Origin: Nanobdellota archaeon
Lineage (GTDB): Archaea > Nanobdellota > Nanobdellia > PEZQ01
DNA length: 64,000 bases
Direction of reading: 5' to 3'
Assembly (NCBI GenBank): GCA_018220985.1
Contig: JAAOXS010000021.1
Span: 24,274-88,273 of the forward strand
Shown: piece after piece, positions 3,976 to 64,000 of the stretch
Layout of the letters: each line of letters begins with the position of its first letter
Position numbering within the stretch: position 1 is the first letter of the stretch
The notes under the pieces: model-generated
Databases searched by the model: none
Seen by the model: the letters and a program-made list of their open reading frames with translations, nothing else
What the model was told of the DNA's origin: nothing
Made by a program: the position numbers and the translations under genes

Positions 3976-5157
3976 TTATGACCATAACATTTTCAAATTC
4001 CCAATCTTAAAACGACCTGAACTACTCTCAACTCGCAACTTGTTAGTGCCGCTTTTAACATCCTCCTTATCAATATCAACAAGTAATAACCCTTCAAAAA
4101 TTTCACCAGGATTAAAAACGTAATCAGTATTACCCACGATGAATTCCAAATAACCAGCTTCAATTATTTCATCAACACTAACTTGAAAAACAAAACTCTC
4201 CGCATCATCGTAAACACTGCTTGGAACACTGAAATAAAGAGTTTTATTAGACGCTTCCTGACTTGTTTCGTAAACAATTAAAGAAACATCAGATAAATCG
4301 TAAACACCACCTTTACTTGAAGAGAACTCAACAATGTTAACACCACTATTCAAATCAACAACGCTAACAGAATCCTTCACACAATAAGCCGCATCCCTTT
4401 TAATAGGGCTTGCAGAATAAATTTGAACATCATTAAAATTAACGCTTAAACTACCCGAATTATCACTCTCAGTAACTTTGAAACATAACTTAAAATTATT
4501 ACCCTTAGCCTCAATTGAACTAACAGTAAAATCAAAAACTTCAACAACATTAATATTCGAAAAATACTGCTTAACAATTTCAAAATCCAACAACTCACAC
4601 TTTTGAGACTGCCAGAACAATAAACCACGCCATTGGCAAGAAACTTCAAGAGAATCCCCAACCATTTTATCAGCATCAACAACTAAATTAATATTCTGAT
4701 TTTTAGAAATAGCGCTCTTATACAATAAGGTATTAGCACTTTTAATTTCCAAATTTGGAGTTCCAACAACCTCACCAATTCTTGCTTTTACAAGAACACT
4801 TGAATAATCATTAGGAATCACTATTTTAGTAGAACCTTTAAGTAAAATATTCGCTGTAAGCACGGCAGTACTTTTCTCAAGAATGGACTCGTTAATCAAA
4901 GGATAAGCAAGTGAAACACTATCAAAAAAATGGTTGCCAACAGCATCACCCGTACTTCTTCCAATATAACCAATACTATTTGAGAAAACAACGTTATCAA
5001 CGCTAACTGAATTATCAGGATTAGTTGAAATTGGCGAAGTCGTGTTAATATTAAGAATTTTCGCGCGCTCACTTGGATTGATCCATAACAAATAAAGAAT
5101 AAACAAACCAAGAATTAATAAAAGTAATAATGGAATTTGTATTTGCGCTCTCCTCAT
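3976..5157 (-). CDS. N-terminally anchored extracellular protein (393 aa)
   Basis: The N-terminus MRRAQIQIPLLLLLILGLFILYLLW is a signal/anchor. This is the first gene of the co-directional surface cluster. Confidence 0.6.
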   Translation of the reverse strand: MRRAQIQIPLLLLLILGLFILYLLWINPSERAKILNINTTSPISTNPDNSVSVDNVVFSNSIGYIGRSTGDAVGNHFFDSVSLAYPLINESILEKSTAVLTANILLKGSTKIVIPNDYSSVLVKARIGEVVGTPNLEIKSANTLLYKSAISKNQNINLVVDADKMVGDSLEVSCQWRGLLFWQSQKCELLDFEIVKQYFSNINVVEVFDFTVSSIEAKGNNFKLCFKVTESDNSGSLSVNFNDVQIYSASPIKRDAAYCVKDSVSVVDLNSGVNIVEFSSSKGGVYDLSDVSLIVYETSQEASNKTLYFSVPSSVYDDAESFVFQVSVDEIIEAGYLEFIVGNTDYVFNPGEIFEGLLLVDIDKEDVKSGTNKLRVESSSGRFKIGNLKMLWS

Positions 5158-24269: not shown

Positions 24270-24803
24270 ATGGCCAAACTTAGAAGCGGAAGGTGTTACA
24301 CAACATTGAAAAGACCGTTCACTCGGAAGAGTCGAAAACATGAACTCTCGTACGTAAGAGGAGTTCCAGGCTCAAGAATCGCAAAATTCGAAGTAGGCGC
24401 AACTAAAAAAAAATTCACGCACGCAGTTCACATGATAAGCAAACAAAATATACAACTAAGACATAACGCGTTAGAATCAGCAAGACTTGCAGTAAATAGA
24501 TACGTAAGCAAAGCAGTAGGAAAAGAAAACTTTCACTTAATAATTCGTGTGTACCCGCATCACGTTTTACGCATGAGAAAAATCATGAGCGGCGCAGGAG
24601 CAGATCGTTTATCTAGCGGAATGGCGCACTCGTACGGGAAACCCATAGGCACAGCAGCGCAAGTTAAAGAAGGTCAAGAAATAATAACTGTAAACCTTAA
24701 CGAATCAGGAGTGCAAAAAGTTAAAGAAGCATTCAAAATCGCTGGAAAAAAATTACCCTGCAAAACAAGCTACAAAATAATAGAAAAACAAACAAAAAAA
24801 TAA
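24270..24803 (+). CDS. rpl10e: 50S ribosomal protein L10e (uL16)
   Basis: Contains RCYTTLKRPFTRKS...YVRGVP..RI.KFEVG...LESARLAVNRY...RVYPHHVLR. Confidence 0.9.
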   Translation: MAKLRSGRCYTTLKRPFTRKSRKHELSYVRGVPGSRIAKFEVGATKKKFTHAVHMISKQNIQLRHNALESARLAVNRYVSKAVGKENFHLIIRVYPHHVLRMRKIMSGAGADRLSSGMAHSYGKPIGTAAQVKEGQEIITVNLNESGVQKVKEAFKIAGKKLPCKTSYKIIEKQTKK

Positions 24804-53889: not shown

Positions 53890-55386
53890 TTACTTAACAC
53901 GCCACTTAACACCACTATCAGTGTCCTCTAATTCAACACCCGCTTTCTTGAGTGCTGTGCGAATATCATCACTCGTAGCGTAATCCTTTTTAGAACGCGC
54001 TTCCACGCGAAGAGAAATTAACTGCTCCATTAAACCATCAATTTTGTTTTTCTTTTTTAGAGAACCACTTACTTTCTTAACTAACTCTTTCCAACTTAAA
54101 GTAACTTTAACACTAGAACCGCTTGTAACACCAATAACTATTTCCTTATCCAATCTTAAACCAAGAACTCTTAACAATTCCTTTACTGTCTCAACTGATT
54201 TTTCAAGAATTGACTTCTTATTACCCAAACTTTGAGAAACCTTTTTCAAAAAAAGCATTGTAACATCAACAGCTTTTGGAGTGTTTAAATCATCATCCAT
54301 AGCTTTCTCAAAACTAACTCTGTACTCCCTAATCCACTTATTCAAACTCTCGCTTTTACCGCCAGTGCTCTCCTGAACTCGTTCAAAAACTCTGTAAACG
54401 CGCAGAAGCAACGCTTCAGAATTCCGCACGTTTGACTTGTTAAAATCAATTTGCTTACGATAATGAGAAGAAACCAATGTTAACCTTAAAGCTTCCCAAT
54501 CATACATTTTCAAAGCATCCCTAATCAACAACATATTACCAGTACTTTTACTCATCTTTTCACCATTCAAAGTCATGAAAGTAGTGTGCATCCAATAATT
54601 CGCGAAACGCTTACTAGTAGCGGCTTCACTCTGAGCAATTTCATTAGGGTGATGTAAATACAAATGATCATAACCACCACCATGAATGTCCAAAGTTTCT
54701 CCCAAATATTTCATACTCATAGCAGAACATTCCACATGCCAACCAGGTACGCCAACACTCCAAGGACTATCCCACTTCATAATTACATTAGAATCAACTT
54801 TTCGCCAAAGAGTAAAATCATTAGGATCATTTTTATTAGTGTCTGCGTGCACACGGCACTTTGATTTTTTTTGAAGAATGGGTGTTGGCGAAAGAGTGCC
54901 ATAGTCTTTAAACTTACGCACTTTAAAGTATACGTTACCATCCTTTTCATACGCGTAACCACTTTTAATAATTCGTTTTGTTAAATCAATCATTTCCTGT
55001 ACGTGTTGTGTTGCACGAGGATAAATATCAGCCCTATTCAAATTTAGCGCGTCTAAATCTTCAAAATACCTTTGAATGAATTTTTCAACAAGAGCGTACG
55101 GATCAACTTTTCTTTCCTTAGCCCTTTTCTCAATTTTATCTTCACCCTCATCAGCATCACTTGTAAGATGACCTACATCAGTGAAGTTCTGCACGTGAGT
55201 AACCTCATACCCTTTGTAACGTAAATACCTAACGAGAACATCCCAATAAGAATACGTGCGCGCATGACCCAAATGCAAATCATCATAAACTGTTTGTCCG
55301 CAAGTATAAATGGAAACCTTACCTTTATGAATTGGTTTGAAAACCTCTTTCTTACGCGATAAACTATTATAAATTTTGAAACTCAT
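53890..55386 (-). CDS. cysS: cysteinyl-tRNA synthetase
   Basis: HIGH motif DDLHLGHARTY; KMSKS motif GEKMSKSTGN; zinc-site context CGQTVY, HVEC. Confidence 0.9.
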   Translation of the reverse strand: MSFKIYNSLSRKKEVFKPIHKGKVSIYTCGQTVYDDLHLGHARTYSYWDVLVRYLRYKGYEVTHVQNFTDVGHLTSDADEGEDKIEKRAKERKVDPYALVEKFIQRYFEDLDALNLNRADIYPRATQHVQEMIDLTKRIIKSGYAYEKDGNVYFKVRKFKDYGTLSPTPILQKKSKCRVHADTNKNDPNDFTLWRKVDSNVIMKWDSPWSVGVPGWHVECSAMSMKYLGETLDIHGGGYDHLYLHHPNEIAQSEAATSKRFANYWMHTTFMTLNGEKMSKSTGNMLLIRDALKMYDWEALRLTLVSSHYRKQIDFNKSNVRNSEALLLRVYRVFERVQESTGGKSESLNKWIREYRVSFEKAMDDDLNTPKAVDVTMLFLKKVSQSLGNKKSILEKSVETVKELLRVLGLRLDKEIVIGVTSGSSVKVTLSWKELVKKVSGSLKKKNKIDGLMEQLISLRVEARSKKDYATSDDIRTALKKAGVELEDTDSGVKWRVK

Positions 55387-55431
55387 TTTATTGCACCTAA
55401 TATTTTTTTAGAATTAAGAATAGATAAATGT

Positions 55432-55461
55432 TCACTCCTTGCAGGGACAATCACTTTTCAT
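55432..55461 (-). promoter_or_regulatory. leader mini-ORF MKSDCPCKE* upstream of cysS
   Basis: Own translation: ATG AAA AGT GAT TGT CCC TGC AAG GAG TGA. It ends 45 nt upstream of the cysS ATG. The core AGTGAT-NNN-CCC-NNN is shared with the trp and val leaders. Confidence 0.5.
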
Positions 55462-60430: not shown

Positions 60431-61594
60431 TTAATCCCTTAACAAGAATTTTTCAAGCACTTTCTTTGCTTTAACACGCTCCTTCTGATGATTAGCCAAA
60501 TAAGAGTTCACTTTTTCAATTGCAATTGCTTTCAACTCACCAGAAAGCATATCACCATTCTTATAACTCTCATAAATTTCTTTTAACTTTTTATCATCAG
60601 GCTCGAATAAGAAATTAAGCAACTGATAAGACATGTCAACATCAGGATTACCTCCTTTTTCCCTATGCTCTTTTACAGTATCACGACCACCACTAAAAGC
60701 GCTTCCAATCTTTTTCTTAACCTCTTTCGCAGAATCAGTTGTGTAAATCGCGCTCGACGGATCTGAAGAACTCATCTTCCCACCTTCCTTCAAACCAGGC
60801 ATTAACACATTATGAATCGCGGCAGGCTTATAATAACCAAGCTTAGGCATAACATCTCGTGAAACCCTAAAATGCGGGTCCTGATCAATACCGTGAGGGA
60901 TAAGACAAGGCACATTCTTACCCTGACGAACACTCTCCAAAAAAGCAGGAACTGCCTGAAAACTCGTGTAAAAAATGCTACCAATATTCGTACTATTATT
61001 AAAACCGAAAACAGCTTTAATTGTTGAAAAAGTAATTTTTTTAGCAACACGAATAGCATTATTATACAACGTTTTCGAATAAAACGTGTCAATTAAGATT
61101 TCAGTATTTTTTGGCTTAAAACCAAGAGCGATAATGTCCAAAGCATCACTTAACGCTTGATTAGTTGTTTGCTCAAGCTCAAGATCCTGCCTGAACATGA
61201 ACTTTTCATCATCAGTCATTTGAATTACTAATTTTGCTTTGAACTTATCCTGCAACCACTTAGTGAACACGAAAGGCATTAAATGACCAAGATGCATTCG
61301 CCCACTCGGACCCCTTCCTGTGTACAAATAGAACTTCTCTTTTTTCTCGTACTTGTCAAGCAACCAGTTCAAATCACGGTGTGAAAAGAACATACCTCTA
61401 CGCAACATGAAATGAGCAGGTCCAGTGTGCTTTTCAATTCGCTTAATTAAAACATCATTAATTCGCACAGTTCCGAACTGTTTGATTAAATTATTATAAT
61501 CAATTTTACCGGACACCTCCCACGGCGTCACGACAAAACCTGTTTTATCAGTCATATTATAACTAACAAGTTCTCTTGATTTAATATTTTTCAT
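60431..61594 (-). CDS. trpS: tryptophanyl-tRNA synthetase (archaeal/eukaryotic type)
   Basis: HIGH motif GRMHLGHL; KMSKS variant GGKMSSSDP; N-terminal VTPWEV...DYNNLIKQFG. 4-bp overlap with trpB2. Confidence 0.9.
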   Translation of the reverse strand: MKNIKSRELVSYNMTDKTGFVVTPWEVSGKIDYNNLIKQFGTVRINDVLIKRIEKHTGPAHFMLRRGMFFSHRDLNWLLDKYEKKEKFYLYTGRGPSGRMHLGHLMPFVFTKWLQDKFKAKLVIQMTDDEKFMFRQDLELEQTTNQALSDALDIIALGFKPKNTEILIDTFYSKTLYNNAIRVAKKITFSTIKAVFGFNNSTNIGSIFYTSFQAVPAFLESVRQGKNVPCLIPHGIDQDPHFRVSRDVMPKLGYYKPAAIHNVLMPGLKEGGKMSSSDPSSAIYTTDSAKEVKKKIGSAFSGGRDTVKEHREKGGNPDVDMSYQLLNFLFEPDDKKLKEIYESYKNGDMLSGELKAIAIEKVNSYLANHQKERVKAKKVLEKFLLRD

Positions 61595-62850
61595 TCTAAC
61601 TCACCTCGCAAGAACTGTTCGTAACCTGTCAAGTCTAGTAACCCATGCCCGCTCAAACAAAACACTAAAACCTGATTCTTTCTTCTCTTAGCATTTTCTA
61701 TAACACTTTTTATTGCATGACAACTTTCCGGAGCAGGAATAATACCTTCAGTTTCAGCGAACAATTTTCCAGCTTCAAAAACACTTTTCTGATTATAATA
61801 CTCTGTTTTCATTAAACCATGCTCTTTTATAGCTGACAATAACGGTGCCACTCCATGATACCTTAACCCGCCTGCATGTATTGCCGGTGGTACGAACTCG
61901 CATCCAAGCGAATGCATTTTTAGCATAGGCGTTATTTTTGCAGTGTCACCAAAATCGTATTTGAACTCGCCTTTTCCCATACTCGCACAACTTTCTGGCT
62001 CTACACCAATTAATTCAGCGCCAGTATTATAGAAAGGTAATGCTATTCCTCCAAAATTACTTCCACCACCCACACAACCAATTACTGCATCCGCTTTTTC
62101 AGGCAATTGCTCTTTAGCTTCCAAACCAATTATTGATTGATGTATTAACACGTGAGTTAGCACTGAACCAAGACTATACTTGTAGTTTTCTAATTTCATG
62201 CAAGTTTCTAAAGCTTCACTTATTGCTATTCCTAAACTTCCCGGATGCTCTGGATTTTGGTCTAATAATTTTTTACCAAAACTTGTTTCTTCATTTGGGC
62301 TGGGCAGAACATGTCCGCCATAAATATTCATAATCGTTTTCCTTCCAGGTTTCTGATAATAACTACTTCTTACCATGAATACTTTACAATCCAAATCGAA
62401 TAATTTGCACGCAAGACTTAATGCACTACCCCACTGCCCAGCACCTGTTTCAGTTATTAAACCTTTCAAGCCCTCTTTCTTCGCGCTAAAAGCTTGCGCT
62501 AACGCAGTATTTAATTTATGACTTCCAGTAGGGCTCGCACCCTCATACTTATAATAAATCCTGCAATTAGTCCCAATTTTTTTTTCCAAATTCTTAGCCC
62601 TAATTAATGGCGTTGGCCTGTATTTTTTGTAGAATTCCAAAATTTTTTCGGGTATTGGAATGAACCGTTCCTTGCTGATTTCTAATTCCATACTTTCTTT
62701 TGGAAAAATTTGTTTTAATTCTTCAGGATTTATTGGTTTTTTTGTTGCAGGATTTATTGGCGGACTAACCTTGAAAGGTAAGTCTGCAGTTATGTTGTAA
62801 TAATGTTTTGGTACTTTACCAGGGACACTCAACCCTTTTATTGTTCTCAC
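61591..62850 (-). CDS. trpB2: tryptophan synthase beta-like protein, TrpB2 type
   Basis: Contains PKHYYNITADLP, the PLP-lysine motif EGASPTGSHKLNTA, GCVGGGSNFGG and GLRYHGVAP. The start is GTG at 62850 with an in-frame stop immediately upstream. No trpA is visible nearby. Confidence 0.85.
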   Translation of the reverse strand: MRTIKGLSVPGKVPKHYYNITADLPFKVSPPINPATKKPINPEELKQIFPKESMELEISKERFIPIPEKILEFYKKYRPTPLIRAKNLEKKIGTNCRIYYKYEGASPTGSHKLNTALAQAFSAKKEGLKGLITETGAGQWGSALSLACKLFDLDCKVFMVRSSYYQKPGRKTIMNIYGGHVLPSPNEETSFGKKLLDQNPEHPGSLGIAISEALETCMKLENYKYSLGSVLTHVLIHQSIIGLEAKEQLPEKADAVIGCVGGGSNFGGIALPFYNTGAELIGVEPESCASMGKGEFKYDFGDTAKITPMLKMHSLGCEFVPPAIHAGGLRYHGVAPLLSAIKEHGLMKTEYYNQKSVFEAGKLFAETEGIIPAPESCHAIKSVIENAKRRKNQVLVFCLSGHGLLDLTGYEQFLRGELE

Positions 62851-62860
62851 TAGTTTTCAT
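62816..62860 (-). promoter_or_regulatory. second, out-of-frame mini-ORF MKTSENNKRVECPW* overlapping the trpB2 start
   Basis: It starts with ATG at 62860, and SD AAGGTGA (62869-62875) ends 8 nt upstream of that ATG. It ends ...GAG TGT CCC TGG TAA, 33 nt inside trpB2. Its 5' context AAATTAATATGAAAA is identical to that of the cysS leader. Confidence 0.3.
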
Positions 62861-62903
62861 ATTAATTTTCACCTTAGAAAGAGTGTTCTCTAGCAAAATC
62901 TTA

Positions 62904-62933
62904 TCATAATTTTTGCCAGGGATAATCACTCAT
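62904..62933 (-). promoter_or_regulatory. leader mini-ORF MSDYPWQKL* upstream of trpB2-trpS
   Basis: Own translation: ATG AGT GAT TAT CCC TGG CAA AAA TTA TGA. It ends 53 nt upstream of the trpB2 start. The ATG lies about 28 nt from the centre of TTTATAAAA (62957-62965). Confidence 0.5.
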
Positions 62934-62956
62934 AAAAATAAAGTATTCAATTTTGC

Positions 62957-62965
62957 TTTATAAAA
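62957..62965 (-). promoter_or_regulatory. TATA-like box (TTTATAAAA) for the trp leader transcript
   Basis: The spacing to the leader ATG is about 28 nt, compatible with the known archaeal TATA-to-TSS distance of about 26-27 nt. Confidence 0.3.
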
Positions 62966-62977
62966 CTAACGAAAAAA

Positions 62978-62987
62978 ATTTAAAAAT
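62978..62987 (+). promoter_or_regulatory. TATA-like box (ATTTAAAAAT) for the val leader transcript
   Basis: Its centre lies about 28 nt upstream of the val leader ATG at 63011. Confidence 0.3.
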
Positions 62988-63010
62988 CAAATCATGTTTA
63001 AATTATTGTT

Positions 63011-63043
63011 ATGAATCTAAAAAGTGATCGCCCCGTACAATAG
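63011..63043 (+). promoter_or_regulatory. leader mini-ORF MNLKSDRPVQ* upstream of valS
   Basis: Own translation: ATG AAT CTA AAA AGT GAT CGC CCC GTA CAA TAG. It ends 39 nt upstream of the valS ATG. Confidence 0.5.
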
Positions 63044-63082
63044 ACCGATTACTTTATTATTCAATTTCGAGAGACTTTAGAC

Positions 63083-64000
63083 ATGACTATGGATAAGCGT
63101 TACAACGTGGAAGAAACAGAAAAGAAATGGGCGAAAAAATGGGTTGAAAACAAAACTTACGAATTCGTAGAAACCAAGAAAAACTACGTAATCGATTCCC
63201 CACCACCATACCCTTACGTATCCTTACATGCTGGGAACTTTTTTAATTTCGCTTACCAAGATTTTGTGGCACGATACAAACGACTTAGAGGATTCTCAGT
63301 ATTACACCCTTGGGGTTGGGACTGTCATGGATTACCAGCTGAAATTTTTATAGAAAAAAAATATGGGAAAACCGCTGAAAAAATAGGCATTGAAGCATTC
63401 AAAGAACTATGCGAAAAACACATATTAGAAAACATTGAAAACATTCGCGAAAACCAAGCTCAAGTAATTGGGATGAGTGTTGACTGGAGTAAACAATATG
63501 CAACAATGACTGATGATTACAAAACTCGCGTCCAAAAATCCTTTCTTGAAATGGTAAAAAAAAAATACGTTTACAGAAAAGAAGCACCCGTATCATGGTG
63601 CGTGAGTTGCCATACAGCCATTGCAGAAGCGCAAACTGATAAAATAGAAAGAGAAACCAATTTTTACCACATAAACTTACCATTAAAAAACAAAAAAGGC
63701 TCAATAACAATTGCAACAACTCGACCTGAACTAATGCCCTCATGTGTCGCGGTCTTCGTTAACCCAAAAGATGAACGTTACAAAGAATTCATAGGAGAAA
63801 TAGTTAAAATACCCTTCTTCGGACAAGAAGTTAAAATAATCGCTGACGAGAAAGCAGACCCTGAATTCGGCACTGGCGCAGTTTACCACTGCACTTTTGG
63901 AGATAAAACTGACTGGGAATGGGTTGTAAAACACAAACTGCCAATAATAAAATCAATAGAAGAAAACGGAAAACTCAACGAAAACACGAAATTTTTAAAA
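63083..64000 (+). CDS. valS: valyl-tRNA synthetase, N-terminal 306 codons (continues beyond the window)
   Basis: Own translation: MTMDKRYNVEETEKKWAKKW...VIDSPPPYPYVSLHAGNFFNFAYQDFVARYKRLRGFSVLHPWGWDCHGLP...ATTRPELMPSCVAVFVNPKDERY...ADPEFGTGAVY. This is the ValRS pattern. It is absent from the ORF track because no stop falls within the window. Confidence 0.85.
   Translation, partial: MTMDKRYNVEETEKKWAKKWVENKTYEFVETKKNYVIDSPPPYPYVSLHAGNFFNFAYQDFVARYKRLRGFSVLHPWGWDCHGLPAEIFIEKKYGKTAEKIGIEAFKELCEKHILENIENIRENQAQVIGMSVDWSKQYATMTDDYKTRVQKSFLEMVKKKYVYRKEAPVSWCVSCHTAIAEAQTDKIERETNFYHINLPLKNKKGSITIATTRPELMPSCVAVFVNPKDERYKEFIGEIVKIPFFGQEVKIIADEKADPEFGTGAVYHCTFGDKTDWEWVVKHKLPIIKSIEENGKLNENTKFLK

Follow-up and report, generated by a model that had tools for sequence, protein, structure and literature searches.

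In a window of 64,000 nucleotides (nt) from an uncultured archaeon of the phylum Nanobdellota, by which we mean the whole analysed stretch, positions 24,274 to 88,273 of contig JAAOXS010000021.1, a minute open reading frame (ORF) precedes valS, the gene for valyl-tRNA synthetase (ValRS). This mini-ORF is probably the zero-frame part of a programmed +1 frameshift switch, which would report the supply of Val-tRNA(Val) and set the translation of valS. Related leaders precede cysS and the trpB2-trpS operon in the same window, and the corresponding genes of four related genomes. It seems fairly likely that a small uncultured clade of DPANN archaea ('Nanoarchaeota') regulates at least three synthetase genes by modular, amino-acid-specific switches of this kind, the first programmed +1 frameshifting proposed for Archaea, and that some genes, namely cysS of one relative and possibly trpB2 of the window, would be expressed only through the shift.

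The valS leader

The mini-ORF MNLKSDRPVQ* (63011-63043, plus strand) reads ATG AAT CTA AAA AGT GAT CGC CCC GTA CAA TAG, and 39 nt separate its stop from the valS ATG at 63083. A first-pass annotation of this DNA had reported it with these coordinates, which were exact on re-reading, together with a promoter box centred about 28 nt upstream of the ATG and no Shine-Dalgarno (SD) sequence before it, both of which were confirmed. The predicted promoter (62970..62987, plus strand), as read from the sequence, is composed of a TATA-like TTTAAAAAT (62979-62987) and, directly upstream, in the position of a transcription factor B recognition element and resembling one, of CGAAAAAAA. The centre of the TATA-like box, 62983, lies 28 nt before the A of the leader ATG, and a leaderless transcript is thus predicted. 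The promoter block AACGAAAAA-N-TTTAAAAAT is kept in the related locus L032.

Within the mini-ORF, all on the plus strand, an SD-like AGUGAU (63023..63028) ends 3 nt before a putative slippery codon. It is followed by the 3-nt spacer CGC (63029..63031), a putative E-site codon, by the slippery CCC-G (63032..63035), where peptidyl-tRNA-Pro might re-pair on CCG after a +1 slip, and by the valine codon GTA (63035..63037), cognate to valS, which we regard as the putative A-site, or sensor, codon. The +1 frame from this point, YNRPITLLFNFERL* (63036..63080, plus strand), comprises 14 codons, its TAG (63078-63080) ending 2 nt before the valS ATG. Only the 5' part of valS lies in the window (63083..64000, plus strand; NCBIfam valine--tRNA ligase, 1.8e-116), from which the gene runs off, its full-length protein being P0243. 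The gene has no convincing SD of its own, which fits a dependence on translational coupling.

These elements suggest the following course of events. Transcription would start at or next to the leader AUG, as indicated by the promoter geometry, to give a leaderless mRNA, on which a ribosome would translate seven codons and come to hold CCC in the P site and GUA in the A site, while AGUGAU, 3 nt upstream of CCC, would pair with the 3' tail of 16S rRNA. With plentiful Val-tRNA, GUA would be decoded, the ribosome would stop two codons on at UAG, 39 nt short of valS, and valS, without a usable SD, would yield little ValRS. With scarce Val-tRNA the A site would stay empty, the peptidyl-tRNA-Pro would slip from CCC to CCG, and the shifted ribosome would read the 14 codons of the +1 frame and stop at the UAG 2 nt before the valS AUG, where termination-reinitiation coupling would raise the synthesis of ValRS. 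Versions with a UGC or a UGG sensor would act in the same way before cysS and trpB2-trpS, respectively, the Trp version consisting of two sites in series.

The first-pass annotation had also drawn a 7-bp helix across the end of the mini-ORF. The helix is real and longer than described: AAAGUGAUCG (63021-63030) pairs with CGAUUACUUU (63046-63055) over 10 bp, including one G-U, to form a hairpin (63021..63055, plus strand) around CCC GUA CAA UAG, with a local z-score of -4.3 and a stability that none of 200 shuffled sequences reached. It does not hold up as a general element, being kept in the closest relative and absent elsewhere: both arms are identical in L032, and hence provide no covariation, and folding and pairing checks found no equivalent in the locus L123 nor at the Cys and Trp loci. 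The 5' arm would sit inside the ribosome at the moment of the shift.

Companion leaders at cysS and trpB2-trpS

The motif AGTGATNNNCCC has three exact matches in the 64-kb window, whose G+C content is 34%, against 0.16 expected, and three or more were found in none of 100 shuffles. All three copies lie in frame within tiny ATG-initiated ORFs upstream of valS, cysS and trpB2-trpS, which are the only synthetase transcription units identified in the window from its ORF list, and the codon after each copy (GTA, TGC and TGG, respectively) is cognate to the downstream synthetase. The presence of three copies at synthetase leaders exceeds chance. The two further loci on which the first-pass annotation had relied, encoding MKSDCPCKE* before cysS and MSDYPWQKL* before trpB2-trpS, do exist.

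The Cys leader (55432..55461, minus strand) reads ATG AAA AGT GAT TGT CCC TGC AAG GAG TGA, with AGUGAU UGU CCC at 55455-55444 and the sensor UGC at 55443-55441. Its +1-frame continuation, of 19 codons (55383..55442, minus strand), ends in a TGA overlapping the ATG of cysS (ATGA), a gene (53890..55386, minus strand; NCBIfam cysteine--tRNA ligase, 1.9e-145) featuring the SD AGGTG 7 nt before its start.

The Trp leader (62904..62933, minus strand) reads ATG AGT GAT TAT CCC TGG CAA AAA TTA TGA and follows a TATA-like TTTTATAAA (62957..62965, minus strand) centred 28 nt before its ATG, the same box being found in L032. Its first site is made of AGUGAU (62930-62925), a UAU spacer, CCC (62921-62919) and the sensor UGG (62918-62916), all on the minus strand. 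The +1 frame of this site forms an ORF of 33 codons (62816..62917, minus strand), which includes an ATG at 62860 and ends in a second site, CCC UGG UAA (62824-62816, minus strand), where a further slip would lead into the frame of trpB2. The operon (60431..62850, minus strand) consists of trpB2 (61591-62850; NCBIfam TrpB-like pyridoxal phosphate enzyme, 5.2e-190), called from a GTG, and trpS (60431-61594; NCBIfam tryptophan--tRNA ligase, 8.7e-150). The called start, GTG 62850, has no SD; ATG 62860, on the same strand, has a good one, AAGGTGA (62875-62869), 8 nt upstream, yet is out of frame with trpB2 and opens an ORF of 14 codons only (MKTSENNKRVECPW*). The annotated start of trpB2 may be wrong, as the ORF of ATG 62860 would be fused to the gene by a +1 slip at CCC UGG UAA.

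The Val and Trp leaders are divergent and 77 nt apart, each with a TATA-like box centred 28 nt upstream. The intergenic region shared by valS and trpB2-trpS (62851-63082) measures 232 nt and holds the two boxes back to back, 14 nt apart. The divergent valS/trpS arrangement is kept in L032, and the two genes are also neighbours on the contig of P0242, the closest relative of the window ValRS (74% identity).

Of the 10 first sites known from the window and its relatives, 8 have a TATA-like box whose centre lies 27-30 nt before the leader ATG, a predicted promoter geometry that agrees with what defines leaderless archaeal mRNAs (a spacing of about 26-28 nt from TATA box to a transcription start at the start codon, and the lack of an SD). 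The exceptions are cysS of the window, with a spacing of about 31.5 nt, and cysS of L039, whose leader abuts a tRNA-Cys gene. For about 50 of the 57 genes predicted in the window, no SD-like sequence is found at 25 nt or less from the start, and the SDs found at cysS, trpS and ATG 62860 are not at transcript 5' ends, lying behind leaders or inside an operon; this scarcity is consistent with predominantly leaderless translation in the window. In L039 (9282-9384) only 2 nt separate the end of the tRNA-Cys gene from the ATG of the Cys leader, which in turn precedes cysS; 3' processing of the tRNA could create a nearly leaderless 5' end for the leader and tie the expression of tRNA-Cys to that of CysRS.

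Leaders in related genomes

Relatives were found by protein searches with tryptophanyl-tRNA synthetase (TrpRS) and full-length ValRS, followed by contig look-ups, and leaders turned up in four of the related genomes. Sampling of the lineage is sparse, and the collection amounts to 13 sites in 5 genomes, ten of them first sites. In L032 (TrpRS 83% identical) the Val leader is ATG AAC TCA AAA AGT GAT CGC CCC GTA TTC TGA, encoding MNSKSDRPVF*, and the Trp leader ATG AGT GAT TGT CCC CGG AGA AAC AAT TAA. The Trp leader of L033/L034 (TrpRS 73%) is ATG AAA CGT GAT TAT CCC TGG AAT TAA. In L039 (TrpRS 70%) we found ATG AAA AGT GGT CAT CTT TGG CAG TGA for Trp and ATG AAA GTA AAA AGT GGT CGT CTT TGC TGA for Cys. 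The set in L123 (ValRS 54%) is composed of the Val leader ATG TTT AAT GGT GGT TGT CCC GTA TTC GAG TGA (MFNGGCPVFE*) and of the Cys leader ATG ATC CGT CCC TGC TGC TGA, which has two sensor codons.

No leader ORF was found at valS in L001, L040, L042 and L125, at trpS in L035-L038, or at 11 more distant archaeal valS loci, a twelfth, L051, having only 4 nt upstream of the gene. Likewise, none precedes pheS, metS or a class-II synthetase gene (PF00152) in the fetched loci. A contig scan with a ValRS fragment ended up with one useful relative, the leader-less L001 (60% identity), and a metagenome scan with a 13-sequence ValRS alignment, whose patterns were overly general, retrieved nothing closer than 47% identity. 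Since the sister lineages lack the leader, the element appears to be confined to a small clade. In L033 (1240-1337) and L035 (2069-2165) pheS, which has no leader ORF, directly follows a tRNA-Phe (GAA) gene of the same strand, an adjacency that may represent another type of link between synthetase and tRNA.

The full pattern (an ATG within six codons, GTGRT-N3-CCC/CTTT, and a zero-frame stop within five codons) was searched in the 1.66 Mb of fetched loci, and matched only these leaders plus two chance cases, with +1 extensions of 0 and 4 codons. The genomes share ancestry, so that the sites are not independent of each other and the statistics given here overstate their independence.

Constraint on the nucleotides rather than on the peptide

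All 13 sites contain an SD-like element, a spacer, typically of 3 nt, and CCC-N or CUU-U, and in 12 of them the next codon is cognate to the downstream synthetase: GTA in all three Val leaders, TGC in all three Cys leaders and TGG in six of the seven Trp sites. GTA is common to the Val leaders of the window, L032 and L123, while the codons flanking it vary. Thus, of the original proposal of a Val codon read within a K-S-D-x-P peptide and next to a helix, the sensor codon holds, since a codon at a fixed position tracks the downstream synthetase and is kept in relatives; the peptide, like the helix, does not generalise. At the positions of K-S-D-x-P and the codon after it, the relatives feature KSGRL-C, KSGHL-W, KRDYP-W, GGCP-V and IRP-CC, and a conserved arrest peptide is ruled out by the changes of S to R, D to G and P to L.

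The nucleotide changes at the motif are almost all transitions, and preserve its SD-like and slippery character. The standard archaeal 16S rRNA 3' tail, GAUCAC, is complementary to GUGAU(C) or GUG(A/G)U(Y), G-U pairs being allowed; the change from GAU to GGU, being tolerant of G-U, retains this complementarity, and the genuine SDs of this genome are AGGTG, GAGGTGA and AAGGTGA. In 11 of the 13 sites, 3 nt separate CCC or CUU from the end of an element of the form (A/G/C)GUG(A/G)U; cysS of L123 (UGAUC) and the second Trp site of the window have a weaker or offset one. Of the 12 sites with 3-nt spacing, 11 have a pyrimidine-purine-pyrimidine spacer, the exception being the UCU of the second site of L033. 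In the P site, CUU-U is found in 4 sites and CCC-U, CCC-G or CCC-C in the other 9; CUU never stands before a codon not beginning with U, the resulting CUU-U being that of prfB, and CCC is the rarest Pro codon here (55/558). As residues vary while SD complementarity and slipperiness persist, the constraint appears to act on the RNA and its decoding, not on the peptide.

Destination of the +1 frame

In 9 of the 10 first sites the +1 frame is open up to the synthetase start. When stops were counted from the sensor codon to 6 nt before the gene start, and summed over the ten first sites, frame 0 contained 21, frame +2 contained 9, and frame +1 only 2, against 13.2 +/- 3.4 in the +1 frame of shuffled sequences (P(<=2) about 1e-4). 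Both +1-frame stops belong to the Trp leader of L039, at or after the end of its second site.

At the end of this frame, stop and start are juxtaposed in valS and cysS of the window, as described above, in valS of L123, where 18 codons end in a TAA abutting the ATG (TAAATG), and in cysS of L039, where a TGA ends 4 nt before the ATG. In other loci the +1 frame is that of the gene itself: this is true for trpS of L032 and for cysS of L123, a gene which otherwise has only a TTG start, without SD. The peptides predicted across the frame junction would be MIRPAAEKLKIK... for CysRS of L123 and ...NNKRVECPGKVPKHYYNI... for TrpB2.

The Trp leaders of the window, L033 and L039 each have, in the +1 frame, a second site of the same architecture, which makes sense only if that frame is read. 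In L033 and L039 the frame runs for 13 codons into GGU GAU U(C/A)U CUU UGG UUC UGA, with a perfect AGGUGAU as SD-like element at the same spacing, and the 22-nt block AGGTGATTNTCTTTGGTTCTGA of this second site is a conserved island between the two genomes. A second slip would enter, in L033, the frame of a gene for a 185-aa protein preceding trpS and, in L039, a short ORF closed by a TAA 2 nt upstream of the trpS ATG. The former gene (L033, 9447-10004), located between Trp leader and trpS, lacks NCBIfam and recorded Pfam matches; L039 (2225-2289) retains no more than its first codons, as a 16-codon ORF ending 2 nt before trpS.

Alternative explanations

That the +1 frame leads exactly to the synthetase start, from a site of prfB-type architecture, favours frameshifting over simple stalling or attenuation as the probable output of the leaders. 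The nearest competitor, essentially the view of the first-pass annotation, is a translational attenuation of the erm/cat type based on stalling only, in which an in-frame pause at the cognate codon would melt a pairing and expose the ribosome-binding site of the synthetase gene. Suitable pairings do occur: in cysS of the window the leader motif can pair with the SD region (GAUUGUCCCUG with UAGGUGCAAU, -8.5 kcal/mol), in L033 and L039 it can pair with UUAGGUGAUU, the SD-like second sites downstream of the Trp leaders (-5.8 and -12.3 kcal/mol), and in the Val leaders it is included in the 10-bp hairpin; in addition, a Pro codon precedes the cognate codon in most sites. However, the pairing partner varies from locus to locus, and at valS it is not the ribosome-binding site, while the leaders of L123 have no structure or pairing at all. 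Moreover, stalling leaves unexplained the restriction of the P site to CCC-N or CUU-U, the stop-free +1 frame up to the start codon, the keeping of CUU UGG in that frame at the second sites, and the cysS gene of L123, which has neither an ATG nor an SD of its own and is nevertheless in frame with the +1 frame. We regard this explanation as unlikely.

Much less probable is that the leader RNA binds the tRNA directly, as an analogue of a T-box specifier, with the codon exposed in a hairpin loop, or that the hairpin and the U-rich tract CUUUAUUAUU together terminate transcription when no ribosome stands in the way. The Val leaders do have a stable 10-bp hairpin with the codon in its loop and T-rich sequence behind it, and this codon matches the synthetase; but neither the Cys and Trp loci nor L123 have the hairpin, the leaders offer no partner for the acceptor end of the tRNA, and no Rfam match was found at the gathering threshold in the window and the relatives, nor at E<=1 in 62780-63120. 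Nor is the T-tract continuous, and the open +1 frame passes through it in sense codons. In all ten first sites an in-frame ATG precedes by 0-4 codons and an in-frame stop follows after 0-3 codons, a conservation indicating that the reading frame matters.

Finally, a DNA-level element, such as an operator or promoter-proximal site of synthetase genes, or a functionless chance similarity, is very improbable notwithstanding the location of the motif 10-25 nt downstream of the predicted transcription start, a frequent repressor position, and the identical codons (AGT GAT CCC) of all copies within one genome, because an operator common to these genes would not change at precisely the triplet that specifies the cognate amino acid, three cognate codons would arise by chance with a probability of about 3.5e-5 ((4/61)(2/61)(1/61), from codon counts), frame, ATG and stop are conserved, and a mere 0.16 motif copies per window are expected.

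Two further candidates were tried and rejected. A mimic of the tRNA anticodon arm, as in the autoregulation of E. coli thrS, was suggested by UGCA and GUAC, which hold the codon as well as the anticodon, but no CCA is present in the Trp leaders. A motif acting as anti-SD mimic, which would always sequester the downstream SD, holds at some loci only.

Several observations weigh against programmed frameshifting, or at least against its simplest form. The proposal is drawn from the sequences of five uncultured genomes of shared ancestry, and the direction of regulation, with a scarce aminoacyl-tRNA leading to more synthetase, is inferred from the logic of the device. The SD-like elements of the first sites are short (5-6 nt), that of the second Trp site of the window is poor (GAGUGU), and the anti-SD (the GAUCACCUCC tail) to which they should pair was assumed from general archaeal knowledge and from the SDs of the window. 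The proposed course of events gives the conserved Val hairpin no part. The valS gene of L123 has a strong SD of its own, so that coupling is not strictly required there, and the +1 frame of L032 valS overshoots the ATG and stops 29 nt inside the gene. At trpB2, homology of the N-terminus scarcely distinguishes the GTG 62850 start from the ATG 62860 start with a shift (160.1 vs 159.3 bits); in this comparison the pre-shift 'RVECP' aligns with 'RIDLP' of PDB 4qys. The remaining case is the sensor codon of the trpS leader of L032, which is CGG, a minor codon read as Arg by alignment, and not UGG.

The L032 leader (4002-4056) has CCC CGG in place of CCC UGG, and its C CCC C is a perfect slip site. 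It looks like a rare-codon, Ty1-like version having lost its specificity for Trp, and may be a set-ratio or rare-codon variant or else a degenerate sensor. A reassignment of CGG to Trp in L032 was ruled out, as CGG aligns with conserved Arg.

Relation to known systems

The autoregulatory +1 frameshift site of bacterial prfB (release factor 2, RF2) reads AGGGGG UAU CUU UGA C. There, the slow codon comes six nt after the SD-like element, which precedes the slippery CTTT by three nt (PMC12421855). The leaders share this geometry, with an SD-like element 3 nt before the slippery codon and six nt before the slow one, and a slow A-site event that would report the activity of the very factor being made (PMC12421855). 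They also share the slippery CUU-U, literally in the sites of L039 and L033 and elsewhere replaced by CCC-N, and a short zero-frame ORF ending just after the site, with the functional outcome carried by the +1 frame. In contrast to prfB, the A-site codon is a sense codon for an aminoacyl-tRNA (GUA, UGC or UGG) and not UGA for RF2; the site lies in a separate leaderless leader ORF, and mostly leads to a stop/start juxtaposition, not to a fusion; the host is an archaeon, and the SD-like element matches the GUGAU part of the SD, not GGAGG; and several paralogous copies of different specificity are found in one genome. The leaders therefore have the architecture of prfB without being members of the prfB family, their A-site codon being a sense one.

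P-site slippage on CUU or CCC next to a slow A-site codon is also known from shifts at hungry codons or at codons of rare tRNAs, such as those of starved E. coli, Ty1 (CUU AGG C) and pheL (CCC_UGA) (PMC5009743), and the trpS site of L032, with its rare Arg codon (CCC CGG), resembles that of Ty1 (Atkins et al. 2016, PMC5009743). Unlike the leaders described here, the shifts known so far are incidental, serve mobile elements as set-ratio expression devices or, as with pheL, were judged a by-product, and none is described as a dedicated regulon with a cognate sensor codon for each synthetase gene.

Activation of a downstream gene by a frameshift within a leader ORF has a precedent in ermCL, where a shift driven by ketolides sends ribosomes into the intergenic spacer and switches on the initiation of ermC (PMC5009743). 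In that system the trigger is an antibiotic and an SD-sequestering hairpin is unfolded, whereas in the leaders the trigger would be a shortage of aminoacyl-tRNA and the shift would lead to a stop at the start codon or to a fusion.

With T-boxes and leader-peptide attenuators the leaders have in common a cognate codon upstream of a synthetase gene which reports tRNA charging. They differ from the former in having no T-box structure, as judged from the negative Rfam searches, the proposed readout being a change of reading frame, and from attenuators of the trp, his and pheST type in having one or two sensor codons, not a run of them. No alternative terminator/antiterminator pairing was found, the hairpin being limited to the Val leaders of the window and L032.

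As to the last step, ATGA, TAAATG and stop-to-start spacings of 2-4 nt are reported to couple translation by termination-reinitiation in archaea, where such coupling needs an overlap or a very short distance between stop and start (PMC6728339, PMC10666635). The +1-frame stops at cysS and valS use these arrangements, with the difference that the upstream coupling ORF would exist here only after the frameshift.

A review of recoding in archaea, dated 2021, names only one archaeal programmed frameshift, of the -1 type (PMC8211752), and our literature searches found no description of synthetase leaders of the present kind.

Implications

If the proposal is true, some gene starts may have to be revised, as cysS of L123 and trpB2 of the window may be mis-started by gene callers. 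The part itself would be compact, about 20 nt long, with a specificity reprogrammable by the swap of one codon. The design principle of prfB would have been reinvented with sense codons, and frameshifting at hungry codons would be, in these organisms, a natural and dedicated sensor of a specific aminoacyl-tRNA, having so far been regarded mainly as an error or a trick of mobile elements. T-boxes and classical attenuators are bacterial, and to our knowledge the way in which archaea match synthetase levels to tRNA charging is largely unknown; the leaders of this small clade would be an archaeal functional counterpart of both.

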